Shown: positions 3,620 to 22,254, counted from the first letter of the stretch. The stretch: DNA of 32,000 bases from Mycoplasma mobile 163K (GCF_000008365.1 NC_006908.1:660001-692000); one strand, 5' to 3'. Made by a program: numbers and translations. The notes: generated from the sequence alone by a model not told the origin.

Positions 3620-3701
3620 ATTTTAATTATATAAGAACTTTATAAATATTTCCTATTTAGACTTTATAAAAAATATGTAAATCTTAACTTATAATTTCTA
3701 T

Positions 3702-4661
3702 ATGGACAAATTCAATTTAGAAAAAATAATTTTTTTAAAACCCTATTTTGAAGAAAAAATTTGAGGTGGAAATTACTTAAAAAATAGATTTTTATTAAAT
3801 GATGATTCTAAAAAAATTGGAGAAGCTTGACTTATTTCAGGAATTGAAGGTAAGGAAAATAAAATTTTAAATGATTCTACATATGACTTAAGAACATTAT
3901 GAGAACAAAAAAATTATTTATTCAATAATCAAAAGAAAAAGTACTCCAAATTTCCGTTATTGTTGAAAATTCTAGCTCCTGAAGATGATCTAAGTGTGCA
4001 AGTACACCCTGATAATGAATATGCAAAGAAATTTGATTCTTATGGAAAAAATGAAAGTTGATATATTGAAGAAATATTAACTAAAAAAGCAAACCAAGTA
4101 ATTCTTGGTCACAAAGCCAAAAATTACAAAGATGCAAAAAACTTAATCGATAGCAAAAAATGAGATGAATTTTTTAACTATGTAAAAATTGAAAAGGGTG
4201 ATGTAATTGATGTTTTTCCAGGTTTAGTACATGCTTTACTAAAAAATATTGTAACATTTGAACTACAACAAGCGAGCGAGCTAACATTTAGGCTTTTTGA
4301 TTATAAAAGAAAAGACAAAGATGGCATTGAAAGAGATTTGCATATTCAAGAGTCTTTAGACAATATTGAATTTAGTAAAAAGTTTGAAATCAAAAATTTT
4401 GCCAATCTAAAAGAAAAAAATAATATTTGCAAAATGGTTGATAATGAATTTTACACTTTTATTAAATTAGATTTAGAAGGGGAATTTACATTTCCTAAAA
4501 ATTTAATGGAAAAAGATTTTTTAATATTTTTTATTAATGAAGGTTTTGGAAAAATTAATGAAATTGAAATTAAAAAAAATGATAGTTTTATTATTCCATC
4601 AACAGTTAAAAAAATTAAAATGGAAGGACTTGCAAAAATTTTTATTGCTTTTAACAATTAA
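3702..4661 (+). CDS. manA: mannose-6-phosphate isomerase, class I (Bacillus Pmi type, cupin)
   Basis: ATG at 3702 is in the same frame as track ORF 4338-4661, and several in-frame TGA read as Trp. The product (MDKFNLEKIIFLKPYFEEKIWGG...LSVQVHPDNEYAKK...GLVHAL) carries the zinc-ligand QVHPD / HA motifs of type-I PMI. Confidence 0.8.
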
Positions 4662-9921: not shown

Positions 9922-11223
9922 ATGAAAGCTACAGATATAATTCAAAAAAAACTTAGAAAAGAATCTTTAACAAAAACAGAAATTGATTTTTTTATTTCTA
10001 AATTTATGATTAATGAAATAAAAGACTACCAAATGACCGCACTAAATACAGCAATTTTTTTAAATGGTCTAAATGAAGAGGAAATCACTTATCTAACACT
10101 AGCTATGCTTGATTCTGGAGAAAAACTTAATTTAAGTTCTTTGAAAGGTCCAAAGGCTGATAAACACTCTACAGGAGGGGTTGGAGATAAAATGACTCTT
10201 ATCATTGGGCCCATGGCTGCTGCTTTAGGAATAAAAATGGCAAAAATGAGTGGTCGTGGTTTAGGTTTTACAGGAGGAACTCTTGATAAACTAGAATCAA
10301 TTCCTGGTTTTAAAATTGATATTAGTGAAAAAAAATTTATTGAGCAAGTAGATAGAATAAATTTTGCTCTTGTATCCCAAAATAAAAACTTAGCTCCTGC
10401 TGATAAAAGAATTTATGACTTAAGAAATGACACAGGAACTGTTGATTCAATTGCATTAATTGCAGCTAGTATTATGTCAAAAAAATTTGCTTCAGGTGCA
10501 GAAATTATTTTGTTAGATGTAAAATGTGGAACTGGAGCTTTTATTGAAACATTAGATAAAGCTAGAGAATTAGCAAAATTGATGGTAAAAATAGGTCATC
10601 TAGCAAATAAAACCGTTAAAGCCGAAATTACAAACATGAATGAGCCTTTAGGAAAAATGATTGGAAATCGTAATGAAGTTTATGAAGTTAAAAAATTCTT
10701 TGAAAATCCAAATAATTATCCTGATTTAAAAGAACTAGCATATACAACAGTAGAATCTTTATTACTTACAAGTAAAATAGCAACAACTGAAAAAGATGCA
10801 AATACTTTGATTGAAAATGTTATGAATTCTGGAAACGCATTACAAAGATTCTACAATTTTATTGAAGCACAAGGTGGAGATACTAAAAAATTAAGAGAAG
10901 ATAAATTATGAAATCCTAAAAAATCTTTAGAAGTAAAATCTTATACTAATGGATTTTTAGAAATAATTAATGCAAAAATTTTTGGAATAGTTGCTAATGA
11001 TTTAGGTGCTGGAAGATATTTAAAAGAAGATAAAATAGATTATGAAGCAGGAATAGAACTTCATAAAAAAACTAATGATTTAGTAAAAAAAGGTGATGTT
11101 TTATTTACTTTATATTCTTCAAAAAAAATAGAGCAAAAATTAGTTGATGATTTACTAAAGGCAATAAAAATAAATGAATCTCAAATTCAAAAACAAAATA
11201 TCATTATTGAAAGGATAGAATAA
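9922..11223 (+). CDS. deoA: pyrimidine-nucleoside (thymidine) phosphorylase
   Basis: Track ORF 9922-10911 ends at a TGA. Read as Trp, the frame continues to TAA at 11221-11223 (about 433 aa). It has the [13 protein letters not shown] phosphate-binding motif and a C-terminal alpha/beta domain. Confidence 0.92.
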
Positions 11224-11224
11224 G

Positions 11225-11878
11225 ATGAAATTTAATAATATGATTGATCACACTCTTTTAAAAGCTGAAGCTACTACAAAAGATGTTGATAAATTAATTG
11301 CTGAAGCAAAAGAATATGGTTTTAAAAGTGTTTGTGTTAATTCTTCATGAGTTAAATATGTAAAAGAAAAACTAAAAGGAAGTGATGTTTTAGTTTGTGC
11401 TGTTGTTGGATTTCCACTAGGAGCAATGAGCATGCAAGCAAAAGTTTTTGAAGCAAAACTTGCAATTGATCATGGAGCAGATGAAATAGATATGGTAATC
11501 AATATTGGTCGTTTTAGAGATGATCAACATGATTATGTTTTAAATGAAATTAAAAAAATCAAAGAAGTTATGGGTAATAAAGTTTTAAAAGTAATTATCG
11601 AGACCGCTTTACTTGATAAAAAAGGGATTAAAGATGCTACAAATATTGTTTTACAATCTGGAGCAGAATTCATAAAAACTTCTACTGGATTTAGTTATAG
11701 CGGAGCCCAAGTTGAAGATATAGAGGTGTTCAAAGAAATTTTAGGAGATAAAGTTGCAATTAAAGCTTCTGGTGGAATTAAAAATTTAAATGACATGAAA
11801 AATTTATATAAAGCAGGAGCAAGAAGATTTGGAACAAGTGCTGCTGTAGCAATTGTTAAAGAGCAAGGAAAACAATAA
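11225..11878 (+). CDS. deoC: deoxyribose-phosphate aldolase
   Basis: ATG at 11225, 1 nt after the deoA stop, is in the same frame as track ORF 11426-11878 through one TGA (NSSWVKY). [12 protein letters not shown]..., the Schiff-base region FIKTSTGF, and GASGGI are present. Confidence 0.93.
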
Positions 11879-12527: not shown

Positions 12528-14420
12528 TTAAATAATAAAATTTAAAATTTTCTTTGCAATATAAATTTCTTTTTTGATAATTTTATTTTCCAAATGTTTT
12601 TTAACATTAGGAAGTTTTTTAGCTTCTTCAATAACTCTTTTTTCATCTCAATCATTTTCTATTTCAAAAGTTTCACGTAATTTTCCATTTACTTGAATTG
12701 CTACAATATCTTTTGTAAGTAAAATTTTATTATTTTCATAAGTTGGTCAACTTTGAAACATAATTTCTTTTTCGCCTAAAGATTCAAGTAATTCTTCTGA
12801 AATATGTGGAGCAATTGTCGAAAACATAATTGCAAAATCTTTTAAAGGTTTTAATGAATAAATTTTTTCTTTTTTATAAAGAGAATTAACAAAAATCATT
12901 AATTTAGAAATCATAATATTAAATTTCAAATCTTCAATATCTTGAGTGATTTCTTTAATCAAAAGATTGTGTTCTGAAATAAATTGATCATCTTTATGTA
13001 ATGAATTTATTTTAGATTTGTCTTCTATAAAAATTTGAAAAATTCTTTTAACTCTTAAAATCCATTTATAAGTAGCTTCAACAGTAGATTCATTTCATTT
13101 CTTAGTATCTGTTAAAGGTCCCATAAACATTTCATAAACTCTTAAAGTATCTGCTCCAAAATTTTGAATAATCTCATCAGGATTTACAACATTTCCAAGA
13201 GACTTTGACATTTTTTGACCATCTTTACCTAGAATCATTCCTTGATTAATTAATTTTTGAAATGGTTCTTTAGTAGGGACTATTTTTAAATCATAAAGAA
13301 TTTTGTGCCAAAATCTTGCATATAACAAGTGTAAAACAGCGTGTTCTTGACCCCCAATATATAAATCAACAGGTAATCATTTACTAAAGGCTTCATAAGC
13401 TTTTTTTGAATCAATTGGTAAATAAGTTCCATCTTCTTGTTTCATTATGTATGCAAGATAATATCAACAACTTCCTGCTCATTGAGGCATTGTATTTGTA
13501 TCTCTTTTAAAAATTTTATTATTTTTTTTATACTGAACTCATTCTGTATTTGTTGCTAAAGGTCCTTCACCTGTTCCAGAAGGCATAATATTTTCCATAT
13601 GAGGTAATTCAACAAGTTCATCAATCAAATAAACATTGTTATCTTCATCAAAATACACAGGAAAAGGTTCACCTCAATATCTTTGTCTTGCAAAAATTCA
13701 ATCTTGCAATTTATAAGTTATTTTTCCATCTATTTCTTCTTTTCCAATTCAATTGGTTTGAAGTTTTTTTAAAGAATCAGGTCAATCTAATAAATTTAAA
13801 TCTTCTAATAATCTATCAGCGTAATTAGTAATTTTCAAAACTCATTGTTTCATAGGTTTTTTATAAACTGGAAATGATCCTCTTTCAGAAACCATTTCTC
13901 CTTTATCATTTTCAACAATTTCTTCATTTGCTAAAACAGTACCTAATCCAGGACATCAATTAACATCAACTTCTCTAATCTCGGCTAAACCTTTTTTGTA
14001 AATTTGTTTAAAAATTCATTGTGTTCAACGATAATAAGAAGGATCTGTTGTATTTACTTCCTTTTCATAATCGAAACTAAATCCTAAAGATTTTAATTGT
14101 CTTCTAAAATTTTCAATATTTTTTAATGTAAATGGTTGAGGATGCTTTCCACTTGATAAAGCATATTGCTCAGCAGGAAGTCCAAAAGCATCTCAACCTA
14201 TTGGATGCAAAACATCAAAACCTTTTAACCTTTTATATCTAGATATAATATCTGTAGCTGTGTAGCCTTCAGGGTGACCAACATGCAATCCTGATCCCGA
14301 AGGATAAGGAAACATATCTAATGCATAAAATTTATCTTTAGATTTATTTGTTGTTTTAAATGCTTTTGTTTTTTCTCATCTTGTTTGTCACTTTTTTTCG
14401 ATTTCGTTGTGATTATACAT
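12528..14420 (-). CDS. leuS: leucyl-tRNA synthetase, intact but lacking the CP1 editing domain (630 aa)
   Basis: ATG at 14420-14418 and TAA at 12530-12528. I walked every codon: there is no TAA/TAG, and many TGA fall at conserved Trp positions (PIGWDAFG, NWIG, RQRYWGEP). HIGH motif HVGHPEG and KMSKS motif KMSKS are present. The sequence ...[35 protein letters not shown] joins the two Rossmann halves directly. Confidence 0.95.
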
Positions 14421-14450
14421 TTTACCTTCTTAAAATATTTCTACTATTAT

Positions 14451-17841: not shown

Positions 17842-18333
17842 TTATTGGGGTGGAAAAATTCCTGCTCCTCATAAGCTTAATAATATAATACCTGCAATAC
17901 TTGCTAAAATTATAATTGTTACAAAAATTCAAAATAAAATTTTATTTGATTTTGATGTTTCTTCTGCTGCAATTTTTCTAAGTTGTAATTCTTCTAGAAT
18001 TTCGTTTCTTCTAATTGGTTGTTGATTTGTTGTTCCATATTGTGGAGCAACAGGTACAAGTAATCCATTAGTATTTCTTTGTTGTGCAGGAACTAAACTA
18101 TTTGTTCTCAATACAGCTGTTTGAGGAGCTAATGAGTGAGTATTAGTTTGAGTTCTTCCAATTGTATTTGTTGCTCTCATTGAAGCATTTTGAGGTTGAT
18201 TACCTTGTGGGTAAGTTTGAACTTGAACTGGTCTTCCTGTTTTTGGATCTGTAATTATTGTTGTTCTTGTATTTGGTATATTAGTTGTTCTATTTTGGTT
18301 ATTTGGGTTGTTTGGTCTTCAATTTTGATTCAT
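17842..18333 (-). CDS. hypothetical low-complexity (N/Q/T/P/R-rich) protein with a single C-terminal transmembrane anchor
   Basis: ATG at 18333-18331 is preceded by AGGAGAATAAA. The frame is open to TAA at 17844-17842 once three TGA are read as Trp (163 aa). Sequence: MNQNWRPNNPNNQNRTTNIPNTRTT...QQPIRRNEILEELQLRKIAAEETSKSNKILF-WIFVTIIILASIAGIILLSLWGAGIF-PPN. I recognise no family. Confidence 0.6.
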
Positions 18334-18334
18334 T

Positions 18335-18748
18335 TTATTCTCCTAGGTTAATGGTTTTTTTTCTATAAAGTATGAAAGTATTACTGTAATTATTTTTTCT
18401 CGACACAAGACTTAAAGCATCTTCATTTGTTAATAAATTTATTTGAAATTCGTTTGCTAGGGAAGATTTATAAACTTCCTTATCTTCTAGAGTTATAATT
18501 TCTTGCAATTTAGCAATTTTGATTTGATACTTCATTTTTTCATTTGCTTTTTTCGAAACTATTGCCCCAACAAAAATACTATACGAATCTTGAAAAATTA
18601 TAGAACCTTCTATCCGATTCGCAATATAGAAATTTATTGCATCATGTCTACTTTTGAAATGGGCAATTGGCTCACTATTCCCTTCTGTTTGTAACTGTCA
18701 AAAGTAAGGGTTATTCTTTCTTATGTAATATAATAAGTACTTTTTCAT
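18335..18748 (-). CDS. hypothetical protein (137 aa), translationally coupled to the downstream tail-anchored protein gene
   Basis: ATG at 18748-18746 is preceded by AAAGGTGAGA. The frame was checked open through one TGA (PYFWQLQ) to TAA at 18337-18335, 1 nt before the next ATG. No confident family. The N-terminal segment YFWQLQTEGNSEPIAHFKSRHDAINF is only vaguely reminiscent of small YegP/DUF2188-type domains. Confidence 0.55.
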
Positions 18749-18848
18749 TCTCACCTTTTAAACTATATAAATTATAAACTAAAGCGAAAAAAATTTAAAT
18801 AAATTCAAAATTATTATCATTTTCTAGTTGTGTATTAAAATTAGAATC

Positions 18849-20546
18849 ATGAATAAAACTTTAGATTTAGATAATGTAACAACAAAGCCTGGTGTTTATC
18901 TTTGAAAAAATAAACATGGCAACATTGTTTATGTTGGAAAGGCCAAAAATTTAAGAAGTAGAATGAAACAATATTTTAGTGGAATGCTAAATTCTTACAA
19001 AACTATAAAATTAGTTCAAATCATAGATTCATACGAAGTAATTGTTACTACTAGCGAAAAAGAAGCTTTGATATTGGAAAGAAATTTAATCGAAACACAT
19101 AAACCAAGTTTCAATATTTTATTAATAGATGATAAAAGATATCCTTATATAAAAATATCACTATTAAAAAATGATATTGAAATAAAAATGGTAAGAAGAT
19201 ATAAAAAGCAAAATAATAGCTTTTATTATGGACCTTTCCCAACGGGTTTTGGAGCAAAAGTTTTGATCAATTTATTAATAAGAGAAACAAAATTTGAAAA
19301 AGGACTGCCAGTTGTAAACAAAAATGCCTCTTATTGGAAAGAACAATTTAAAAAAGTAAAAAATATTTTAGGTGTAAATAACAAAGAATACATAAATGAC
19401 TTGAAAAAGCAAATGTTTTTAAGTGCTGAGAATTTTCAATTTGAAATTGCAAATGAAATAAAATCAACAATACTATTTTTAGAAGAGTTAAAAAACAATC
19501 AAGTTGTTGAATTAAAAAATGATAAAAATATTGATGTTATTGGATTTTCAGAAGATAAAAACTATATATTTTTAAATATGCTTTTTTATAGATATGGAGC
19601 CTTATTATCTAGTGAGGATTTTGTTTTAGAAAAATTAAGTGATGGAAAAGAAACTATTAGAAAATTTATAAATGAATATTACACTTTAAATTTGCTACCT
19701 GATGAATTAATTATTTCATTAGAGTTTACACATAATGATCTGAATTTTGATTTTGAAATATTAAATCCTAAAAGAGGAACCTACAAAAATATTTTAGATA
19801 ATGCAATAATGAGTGCTAATGAAAAAAGAGAAATTAAAATTTTAGAATTTGAAAGAAAAAAAGAAATCACAATAAATAATATTGAAAAATTAGAAGAATT
19901 ACTTGAAACGAAAAATCTTAATCATTTTCTTGTGATTGACAATTCAAATACAAATAATTTTTCACCAGTTTCAGTAATTATTAGTTATAAAAATGGATTA
20001 AAAGACAAAAAAAATTATAAAAAATTTAATTTAGAAACGGGTGATAGAAAAGCAGATGTTGAATATATGAAAGAAGCTTGTTTTAGATATTTTTCCAAAA
20101 AAGAAAATCCAATTCCTGATCTTTTGATTGTGGATGGAGCCCTTGCTCAAGTAAGAGAAGTAAAAAAAATTTTAGCATCATTATTTATAAAGCTTAAAGT
20201 TATTGGTTTAGTAAAAAATGATAAACACATCACAAGTCATATTATTAATTTAAAGGAAAAAAGAGAAGAAATTAGCGATGCTTCTTTATTGATATTTTTA
20301 AAATCTATTCAAGAAGAAGTAGATAGATTTGCTAAATTTCATCACCGCTCTTTAAGAACAAAAAATACTTTGGAAGGATTTTTACTTTCGATTAAAGGTA
20401 TAGGGCCTAAAACTGAAAAAAAATTATTGGAAAATTTTAAAAATTACAGTGAAATTTACAATGCTTCTCTAGAAGATTTAGAAAAAATACTTTCAAAATC
20501 TATTGCAAAAACACTTTATGAAAAAATAAAAAAAAATATTAATTAA
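18849..20546 (+). CDS. uvrC: excinuclease ABC subunit C
   Basis: ATG at 18849 is in the same frame as track ORF 18963-20546 through one TGA (VYLWKN). GIY-YIG module [30 protein letters not shown] and C-terminal helix-hairpin-helix IKGIGPKTEKKLLENF are present. About 565 aa. Confidence 0.93.
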
Positions 20547-22183
20547 AGAATTAATATTTTTTTGCTATCAATTATTTTTGAAGAATTACCATAAAATTTT
20601 TCAACAATATTTTTACGACCTTCTTCTGAAATAATAATATTCGAAACAGTATTTAAAAGATCTTCTGATTCTAATAAATGTAAAATTGTTGAATATTGAG
20701 TATACATTTTCACCAATTTATTTTTTAATGGGTTATTTTCAATAAAGCCATTTAGCAAATAAAATTCAAATGGAATATTTTTATCTCAAAATCTTAATCA
20801 TTCATTTTGGTTAAGTTTTTTTGTACTTTCAAATAAATTTTTTCTCATTTCAACTTTTTCTCTTAATGTTTTAATATAATCAAGTGTTTGACCTTCTGAA
20901 ATTAATCTATCTCTTGGATGCCCTTTAAAAATAAATTTAATTTGATGAATTGGTTGGTTTGGATTTTCCGTAATTGTTTTATTCAATAAAGATAAAATTC
21001 TTGTTGCTTCTGTTTCTGCAAATAAATCAGAATTAGAAATATCATTATCAAAAATAATATTTCCTGAGTAAACAATATTTAAATTATTATTCATATCATC
21101 TAAAGAATTTTCAACAATAATATTACTAGAATTAATAACACTTAAAAAAAGAGTTTTACTTTCTTGACTTAATGAAGTATACATTTTTAAAATTCTTAAA
21201 TTGCTTGAATAAAACGGATCAAATCAACCACTAAAACTATCATTTAGAGATAAAGATGATGTTGAAGAATCGTTTAAATTTCTAATCATATCTGTGCTTG
21301 CAAAAAAGAAAACATTTTGAGAAGTAGAATTAGGTTTTAAATTATTTTCATCATTAGACACTAAAGATTGTCATAACAATGATGCATTTTGAATATTTAA
21401 TTCAAATGAAGGTTCATTTTGTAAGAATTTTTTCTTTAAATCAATTGAGGGTTGAAAAGTTTTTGTTGCAGAATTAAATTTGTTTTTTGAAAAAGAATAA
21501 AAATTGAAAATATTGTCATCAATATAAGTTCTTTCTGCAGATCCATCAGTAATAAATGCTATAGAATTAAATTCAAAAAAAGCTTTATATTTGTCAATTA
21601 TGGCGACAGCTCCATCCTGATCATTATTTTTTATATTGCTAACAAATTTCATTGCATTTTGATATCAAACTTCAGCTGGCATAAATATATCAAATTTTTT
21701 TCCTGGATTTTCCAATTTAATATTTTCAAATTCTGCATTGCTTCATGAATCAATTCTGGAAGCATTATTAGCATTAGGGATTTTTTTAAAAATCACATTT
21801 TTATATTTTGCTGTAATTAAAGAATAATTCTTATTGCTAAAACCTTCATCATAATTACTTAAAATATAAATTTTTTTATTTGGATTAATTTCTAAAATTT
21901 TTAGTAAACTACTAAATTGTGACATTCTTTGAATAACACCATCTCATGAATTGTAGTATACTAAAACATTATCTTGCATTTCTGTTGCATGCAACCTTGA
22001 ATAATTCTCTAAATCATTTTCTTTACTTAAATAATTTGATTCCACATCTGATAATTTTTGATTTAAATTCAATGGCTGAATTTCTATTTGCTGCATTGAA
22101 AAAATTGCAACTGGTACAGCAATTAAAATTGAAACTGCTGCTGTTGAAGCAATAATACTTCCTATTAATAATTTTTTTCTCAT
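20543..22183 (-). CDS. membrane-anchored GT80-like (PmST1 / PM0188-type) sialyltransferase-fold protein, 546 aa
   Basis: Track ORFs 21944-22183, 21743-21925, 21371-21652, 20798-21184 and 20543-20758 share one frame. The gaps were checked codon by codon and contain only TGA (seven in total). The N-terminus is MRKK plus a hydrophobic stretch of about 22 residues (no Cys). Ordered motif matches to PmST1 are ITDGS, WQS...ASTD, FKGHPR, IPFEFYLLNG and YST. Confidence 0.6.
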
Positions 22184-22254
22184 AATTTTATATTAACACA
22201 TTATCTTTGTGCATTATAATAATTAAATTTATTGGTTAAAAATACGGAGGAAAT

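Follow-up and report, generated by a model that had tools for sequence, protein, structure and literature searches.

The closest described relatives of the protein discussed here are the sialyltransferases of family GT80 (PF11477): PmST1 (PM0188) of Pasteurella multocida, the alpha2,3-sialyltransferase of P. dagmatis, and the alpha2,6-sialyltransferases of Photobacterium and Vibrionaceae (PDB 2z4t and 4r83), which have an extra immunoglobulin-like N-terminal domain (PF22352) that the M. mobile protein lacks. In PmST1 and Pd2,6ST, the sialidase and trans-sialidase activities are reverse sialylation and depend on cytidine monophosphate (CMP); the Photobacterium/Vibrionaceae enzymes have such side activities as well (PMC10795189). 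Two further families, GT52 (Lst/NST of Neisseria, PDB 2yk4) and GT38 (polysialyltransferase of Mannheimia, PDB 5wc6), share with GT80 the sialyltransferase-type GT-B superfamily and its His-Pro (HP) motif. For gonococcal Lst, it has been proposed that the bacterium sialylates itself with host CMP-N-acetylneuraminic acid (CMP-Neu5Ac), and the cellular location of Lst is still debated (PMC9558349). Our literature search turned up no earlier description of a sialyltransferase or GT80-like protein in mollicutes. Mycoplasma mobile is a model organism for gliding on sialylated oligosaccharides, which are caught by Gli349 (PMC9558349; PMC7052211). We analyzed a 32,000-nucleotide stretch of M. mobile 163K DNA (NC_006908.1:660001-692000; "the window", with positions counted from its first letter) and in it the gene at 20543–22183 on the minus strand. 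A first-pass annotation, made from the sequence by a model, had described its product as a surface-anchored, PmST1-like GT80 sialyltransferase.

The ectodomain of this protein is predicted to be a GT-B glycosyltransferase with two Rossmann domains. In both structure and sequence, it comes nearest to the sialyltransferases of GT80 (the PmST1 and P. dagmatis enzymes and the Photobacterium alpha2,6-sialyltransferases), and homology with them is very probable. By hidden Markov model (HMM) criteria, the protein falls outside GT80; it represents a distinct and divergent family that is the sister of GT80 in the superfamily of sialyltransferase-type GT-B enzymes. Taken as a whole, it is probably a surface-anchored GT80-like enzyme that would transfer sialic acid, or a close nonulosonic acid, at the cell surface. 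What is new is that a known kind of enzyme occurs, in a divergent and surface-anchored form, in an organism whose motility centers on sialic acid.

Reading frame and mollicute family

Translated with genetic code 4, positions 20543–22183 (minus strand) form a single open reading frame (ORF) of 546 sense codons followed by TAA. Read under table 11, the frame has no stops other than seven TGA codons (80, 147, 173, 271, 320, 462, and 466), and what had looked like six ORF fragments is, as already proposed in the first-pass annotation, one frame broken only by TGA (Trp). At the base composition of this strand, 546 codons free of TAA and TAG have a chance of ∼3e-20. In the family alignment, all seven TGA positions face Trp or aromatic/hydrophobic residues in the homologues (position 80 is Trp in 21/24 of them, position 462 in 15/26), so TGA is a sense codon in this gene. 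The product has exactly the sequence of M. mobile 163K AAT28032.1 (WP_011265066.1, UniProt Q6KH98), annotated as "hypothetical protein" at NCBI and as "Expressed protein" in UniProt; the latter name is the pointer to expression. The G+C content of the gene region is 23%, matching the neighbors. A pseudogene or a chance ORF was rejected.

An exhaustive phmmer search against 1.84 billion representative sequences returned 32 homologue clusters, 27 of them at E ≤ 1e-10, with 25%–33% identity over the full length. A word-indexed search, with either the single sequence or an alignment as query, returned the protein itself and nothing else. All named sources of homologues are mollicutes: Mycoplasmoides alvi and metagenome-assembled genomes (MAGs) of Metamycoplasmataceae, Mycoplasmoidaceae, and Mycoplasmataceae. 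One of these MAGs comes from the gut of Arctic char, and its dbCAN annotation contains only CE9, GH170, GT2, GT4, and GT58, with no GT80 (PMC11092275). In M. alvi, there are two paralogues within 10 kb of each other (JNJU01000001.1, 1–1024, minus strand, and 10001–11701, plus strand), both labeled "hypothetical protein"; the named homologues are annotated as hypothetical, like the M. mobile protein. The family is thus previously unannotated and found in mollicutes only, and its members are, from their N-termini, predicted lipoproteins or signal-anchored proteins. One homologue from a metagenome assembly (P0009, 881 amino acids) carries an N-terminal BspA-type leucine-rich-repeat region (PF13306, E = 4.7e-11), and two others, also from metagenome assemblies (P0010 and P0027), have a conserved C-terminal extension of ∼150 amino acids.

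Fold, motifs, and kinship with GT80

With the family alignment as input, AlphaFold2 gives a model of two beta/alpha Rossmann-like halves (mean predicted local distance difference test score, pLDDT, 84; predicted template-modeling score, pTM, 0.85); from the single sequence, the prediction was unusable (pLDDT 37). In a Foldseek search of the PDB with the model, ranks 1–22 are all GT80 structures (E from 1.7e-11 to 9e-9, probability 1.0), namely PmST1, the P. dagmatis sialyltransferase, and the enzymes of P. damselae and Photobacterium sp. JT-ISH-224. They align over ∼490 columns and span the whole target, with 12%–17% identity and target-normalized template-modeling scores of 0.48–0.62. The best match is to PmST1 and the P. 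dagmatis enzyme (E ∼1e-11, full length), and the GT-B fold of the Photobacterium/Vibrionaceae enzymes matches at 7e-10 to 9e-9. Next come GT52 NST (2yk4) and GT38 polysialyltransferase (5wc6) at ∼1e-4, much weaker than GT80 but ahead of all other GT-B families; generic GT-B structures dependent on uridine diphosphate (UDP) have E ≥ 3e-3. The structure prediction and Foldseek comparison suggested in the first-pass annotation return a predicted GT-B fold closest to the solved GT80 structures. The words "trans-sialidase fold" used there are wrong, since GT80 enzymes have the GT-B fold and owe their trans-sialidase activity to sialylation run in reverse (PMC10795189).

Profile comparisons point the same way. 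Against an alignment of 15 GT80 proteins, the family aligns by hhalign through its C-terminal domain with a probability of 94%–95% (E = 4e-8, or 3e-8 with the C-domain alone); the control with reversed columns gives E = 0.45. The C-domain profile, run against 177,635 distinct PDB sequences, has 11 matches at E ≤ 10, all of them GT80 (best E = 4.4e-4), and none to the Neisseria or Mannheimia enzymes. In BLASTP against PmST1 (a reference 100% identical to PDB 2ex0_A), residues 335–437 align with PmST1 205–296 at E = 0.001, a value for a single pairwise comparison, and this segment includes IVYSGN/FIFTGT and FKGHPR. The fold search, the profile matches, and the residue invariance described below all draw on the same homologue set.

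The family is also related to more than one sialyltransferase family: PF07388 (GT38) weakly matches 3/26 members (best E = 4.3e-5), and PmST1 itself matches that model at 0.0018. Fold, HP motif, and this double kinship place the protein in the superfamily that contains GT38, GT52, and GT80.

The coding sequence, the two predicted domains, and the motifs are as follows. Conservation counts refer to a 26-sequence family alignment, in which the homologues are 21%–28% identical to the M. mobile protein.

20543..22183, minus strand: complete coding sequence, 546 amino acids and a TAA stop (translation; identity to AAT28032.1).
21179..22003, minus strand: residues 61–335, predicted N-terminal Rossmann-like (acceptor-side) domain of the GT-B fold, with insertions relative to PmST1 (beta/alpha pattern in the AlphaFold2 model; full-length Foldseek alignment to GT80; colinear but non-significant hhalign alignment).
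21542..21547, minus strand: D213-G214, x-D-G-[TS] motif with the predicted catalytic-base Asp, opposite PmST1 D141-G142 (both residues in 25/25 homologues with a residue there; hhalign register; end of strand 207–211).
21215..21223, minus strand: F321-D-P323, family-specific motif (FDPYNS) that faces a gap in GT80 (F321 in 24/26, P323 in 26/26).
20546..21178, minus strand: residues 336–546, predicted C-terminal Rossmann domain for nucleotide-sugar binding, a homologue of the GT80 C-domain (hhalign 95%, E = 3e-8; profile search of the PDB, GT80 only; BLASTP match to PmST1).
21062..21067, minus strand: S373-G374 (IVYSGN), aligned to PmST1 T265-G266 (FIFTGT) (G374 in 25/26; BLASTP, hhalign, and PDB profile alignments).
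20912..20926, minus strand: K420-G-H422-P423-R424, HP motif, aligned to PmST1 K309-G-H311-P312-R313, which contacts the CMP phosphate/leaving group (K420, H422, and P423 in 26/26, R424 in 24/26; BLASTP, hhalign, hmmsearch).
20765..20773, minus strand: P471-F-E473, Glu aligned to PmST1 E338, which contacts the ribose hydroxyls of CMP (P471 and E473 in 26/26; hhalign; start of helix 472–477).
20687..20692, minus strand: S498-T499, putative counterpart of the phosphate-binding pair S355-S356 of PmST1, at a helix N-terminus (both in 26/26; between strand 489–495 and helix 499–506).

The invariant or near-invariant residues are thus D213, G214, G374, K420, H422, P423, R424, P471, E473, S498, and T499; N304, S535, and F321-x-P323 are also conserved. 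The register with PmST1 is S373-G374/T265-G266, K420-G-H422-P423-R424/K309-G-H311-P312-R313, and E473/E338, and in an extended alignment D213-G214/D141-G142. The motif order of PmST1 and the P. dagmatis enzyme is kept, with a putative Asp-Gly, then Ser/Thr-Gly, K-G-H-P-R, Glu, and a putative Ser-Ser/Thr. The motif blocks that the first-pass annotation had matched by eye to PmST1 are colinear with the hhalign alignment, the Asp/His-Pro/Glu/Ser-Thr set that it had singled out consists of the same residues that turn out invariant, and its codon positions for Asp213 (21547–21545) and His422 (20920–20918) are exact. The equivalence between S498/T499 and S355/S356 is topological only, drawn from secondary-structure position rather than from superposition, because hhalign and MAFFT place the pair 3–4 residues out of register; the MAFFT alignment of the C-domains across the family and GT80 is unreliable around it. 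In PmST1, S355/S356 likewise lie at the N-terminus of the corresponding helix.

Predicted surface location and proposed activity

Two features complete the N-terminal part of the protein.

22097..22183, minus strand: residues 1–29, MRKK and a hydrophobic helix, predicted uncleaved signal-anchor with the N-terminus in and the C-terminus out (hydropathy; the corresponding place in homologues holds an anchor or a lipobox Cys).
22004..22096, minus strand: residues 30–60, low-confidence and poorly conserved linker or stalk (pLDDT <50 for residues 1–45; gappy alignment).

Hydropathy analysis bears out the N-terminus as first described, MRKK and a hydrophobic stretch devoid of a lipobox Cys: ∼24 hydrophobic residues (5–28) follow MRKK, and no Cys is present. 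The best 19-residue Kyte–Doolittle window scores 2.46 at residue 10, and no later hydrophobic or transmembrane segment is found by hydropathy. This is the N-terminal pattern of a mollicute surface lipoprotein or signal-anchored protein. In ∼9–10 of the ∼21 homologues with complete N-termini, a lipobox-like ...[AS]C comes right after the hydrophobic stretch, and the remainder have an uncleaved anchor. A hydrophobic N-terminal leader is found also in PmST1 and the P. dagmatis enzyme. A conserved Cys (C-N), read off the N-terminal GT80 consensus, is consistent with a lipoprotein signal in the Photobacterium/Vibrionaceae enzymes, as in many of the mollicute homologues.

Because the homologues carry lipoprotein signals or N-terminal anchors, the conserved domain would leave the cytoplasm and be held on the outside of the single membrane, and the lipoprotein-type Cys in about half of them supports the earlier placing of the bulk of the protein outside. 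We infer for the M. mobile protein a type-II-anchored topology, with the N-terminal helix in the membrane and residues ∼60–546 outside. The orientation bears on a different reading, a cytoplasm-facing, membrane-anchored GT-B glycosyltransferase that would use UDP-sugars for glycolipid or capsule synthesis. Mycoplasmas do make glycolipids by membrane-associated glycosyltransferases, three related MAGs have a GT4 gene adjoining the homologue, and in M. alvi a GT2 gene is located ∼5 kb away. However, the lipoprotein signal peptides of the homologues put the domain outside the cell, the positive-inside rule would give an outward orientation for the M. mobile anchor too, the HP motif is characteristic of CMP-sugar enzymes, and UDP-dependent GT-B structures match the model at E ≥ 3e-3 versus 1e-11 for GT80. 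We regard an enzyme of this kind as very improbable.

Sialyl transfer by the M. mobile protein is plausible from its sequence, and we lean slightly toward it. The reaction would be an inverting transfer of sialic acid, or of a close nonulosonic acid such as ketodeoxynonulosonic acid (KDN) or N-glycolylneuraminic acid (Neu5Gc), between a CMP-activated donor and a glycan hydroxyl. D213 would act as the general base that deprotonates the acceptor, and H422, S498, and T499 would stabilize the CMP phosphate. Two routes to the donor may be considered: host-derived CMP-sialic acid, with gonococcal Lst as a precedent, or a CMP-dependent reverse reaction, as in the sialidase and trans-sialidase activities of GT80. 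These two are favored because the domain is placed outside a cell with no evident supply of CMP-sialic acid. By either route, sialylated glycans would be edited, on host surfaces or on the mycoplasma.

Trans-sialidase of Trypanosoma cruzi and the bacterial GH33 sialidases offer a possible functional analogy only, that of a surface enzyme shifting or removing host sialic acid with no nucleotide-sugar pool. Their fold is an unrelated six-bladed beta-propeller, their mechanism is retaining, and they make no use of CMP.

Several observations weigh against a GT80-like sialyl-transfer enzyme. The PF11477 model has no match at E ≤ 10 in the protein and none at E ≤ 1 in the 26 family members (it scores PmST1 at 8e-210, and the Photobacterium/Vibrionaceae enzymes match it clearly). 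Pfam and NCBIfam scans of the protein gave nothing relevant, nor did phmmer against PDB sequences, where the sole match is a spurious one to IL-15; the full-length family profile has no match in the PDB, and the C-domain profile alone worked. At the sequence level, the kinship shows only in pairwise BLASTP and in profile methods. Since the PF11477 model is blind to the protein, strict GT80 membership is not established: of the PmST1-like GT80 assignment in the first-pass annotation, the homology stands (by fold, profile, and residues), and the membership, for which a search with this Pfam model had been suggested, does not. The N-terminal domain alone is non-significant by hhalign (E = 0.073), with D213 opposite D141 in the best, colinear alignment; the case for homology of this domain therefore comes from the structural match over the full length.

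The residue before D213 is A, S, G, C, or T in the family and never acidic, so the motif is x-D-G-[TS] and not the D/E-D/E-G first assigned (D140-D141-G142 in PmST1); the putative catalytic Asp and the following Gly are invariant and aligned to D141-G142. In structural alignment, the protein is 13%–17% identical to PmST1 and the P. dagmatis enzyme. It has no evident counterpart of PmST1 W270 or of the acceptor-side residues. It is ∼100 residues longer than the GT80 catalytic core, with ∼24 extra residues between the HP motif and the Glu and a long insertion, bearing FDPYNS, that has no GT80 counterpart. It differs from them also in its host, a wall-less member of the Mycoplasmatota with TGA read as Trp, and is known by sequence and model, and the residue matches to PmST1 rest on alignment and secondary structure, not on residue-level three-dimensional superposition. 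Finally, a supply of CMP-sialic acid or CMP outside the cell is an assumption. No neuA/B/C, nanA/E/K/T, or other gene for CMP-sialic acid synthesis or for sialic acid uptake or catabolism is present in the window or beside any homologue, and a 2009 survey lists just three Mycoplasma species, none of them M. mobile, as having the Nan cluster.

Some of these points would fit the same fold and CMP-sugar chemistry with another sugar, that is, a surface transferase for 3-deoxy-D-manno-octulosonic acid (Kdo), for legionaminic or pseudaminic acid, or for a non-sialic substrate. In the PmST1 complexes, the HP motif, the Glu, and the Ser/Thr pair bind the CMP moiety and not the sugar; the acceptor- and sugar-side residues of GT80 are not recognizably kept, the family has its own FDPYNS, and the three weak matches noted above are to PF07388 (GT38) rather than to PF11477. 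The structure and profile searches nevertheless place GT80 sialyltransferases far above all else, and no Kdo-transferase structure (GT99, GT107) is among the top 50 matches listed. Minimal mollicute genomes would be poor candidates for making Kdo, legionaminic acid, or pseudaminic acid, and host-derived CMP-sugars are essentially CMP-sialic acids. Another sugar seems unlikely.

The loss of the first acidic residue of D/E-D/E-G would suit a GT80-derived surface module that no longer catalyzes transfer and instead binds sialoglycans or nucleotides as a lectin or adhesin. So would the extracellular location, where activated donors are scarce, the fusion of one homologue to a BspA-type leucine-rich-repeat, adhesin-like domain, and the vicinity of the M. 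alvi paralogues to a P1-type adhesin gene. Against such a module, the full catalytic set is kept in 25–26/26 sequences (the Arg in 24/26) at 21%–28% identity. Invariance of the whole set is what one would sooner expect of an active enzyme than of a binding scaffold, and we consider a pure binding role quite unlikely.

With sialyl transfer at the surface as the preferred reading, a role in gliding may be suggested. Because Gli349 catches sialylated oligosaccharides, the enzyme could, speculatively, edit the ligands of M. mobile itself or sialylate its surface. A broader proposal, which we hold to be possible but doubtful, is that M. mobile and its mollicute relatives, of which several come from fish (such as the MAG from Arctic char gut), display an active surface GT80-like enzyme that edits sialylated glycans with host CMP-sialic acid or by CMP-dependent trans-sialylation, and thereby makes, moves, or destroys the ligands of Gli349 and P1-type adhesins, or coats the cell with host sialic acid. 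A surface enzyme adding, removing, or shuffling sialic acid would bear on ligand availability, host colonization, and immune evasion. If this is confirmed, Mollicutes would have their first described family of sialyl-transfer enzymes, and sialic-acid-dependent gliding a partner that edits its receptors. The family brings the GT80-type fold to a second bacterial phylum and offers a divergent scaffold for chemoenzymatic sialylation.

Genomic setting

The M. mobile gene and uvrC converge, their stop codons overlapping within ATTAA (window 20543–20546), and the gene is divergent from tyrS, with a shared intergenic region of ∼68 nucleotides (window 22184–22251). The promoter-like site for tyrS in that region is strong (TTAACA-16-TATAAT), and that for the gene is weaker. 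No terminator-like hairpin was found at the gene and no Rfam element in the window. Other genes nearby are nfo, pepP, efp, pth, dps, and ftsH. Around the gene and its homologues, the neighbors are mostly housekeeping genes (uvrC, tyrS, nfo, leuS, secA, and arc genes).

Homologous loci were searched with eight family sequences as seeds. The homologue directly adjoins leuS in two MAGs (L003 and L004) and in M. alvi (L009), where manA comes next. In the M. mobile window, manA (3681–4661, plus strand), leuS (12528–14429, minus strand), and the gene (20543–22183, minus strand) are scattered over 18 kb. In three closely related Metamycoplasmataceae MAGs (L002, 2971–8639; L007, 3010–8675; L008, 3010–8669), nagB-nagA lies upstream of the homologue and a convergent GT4 gene downstream. 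This neighborhood is weak evidence of a functional link because it occurs in one lineage only.

The sequence data support a gene long resident in the lineage, as the first-pass annotation had argued from AT-richness and TGA usage: its G+C content is like that of its neighbors, the leuS linkage is conserved, and the family is spread over both Metamycoplasmataceae and Mycoplasmoidaceae. A recent import from Pasteurellaceae was rejected on native composition, on TGA-Trp usage, and on a mollicute-wide family with conserved leuS linkage.

The M. mobile leucyl-tRNA synthetase (LeuRS; window 12528–14429, minus strand) has 630 amino acids, with the Pfam catalytic and anticodon-binding domains and no editing domain (CP1, PF13603), a known peculiarity of M. 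mobile. The LeuRS encoded beside the M. alvi homologue has 815 amino acids, with PF13603 present. At the same M. alvi locus (L009), a P1-type adhesin gene (PF12378, P1_N; 20360–21701, minus strand) lies ∼9 kb from one of the paralogues. In the M. mobile window, two small ORFs (17842–18342 and 18335–18757, both minus strand) have no Pfam match; one of them encodes a 166-residue protein rich in Q, N, and P, with a C-terminal hydrophobic segment. Guessing by accession order (the gene would be ∼MMOB5460), one of these ORFs could be MMOB5430, a locus-tag mapping that is unconfirmed; MMOB5430 is an unannotated small protein localized to the gliding machinery (PMC7052211).

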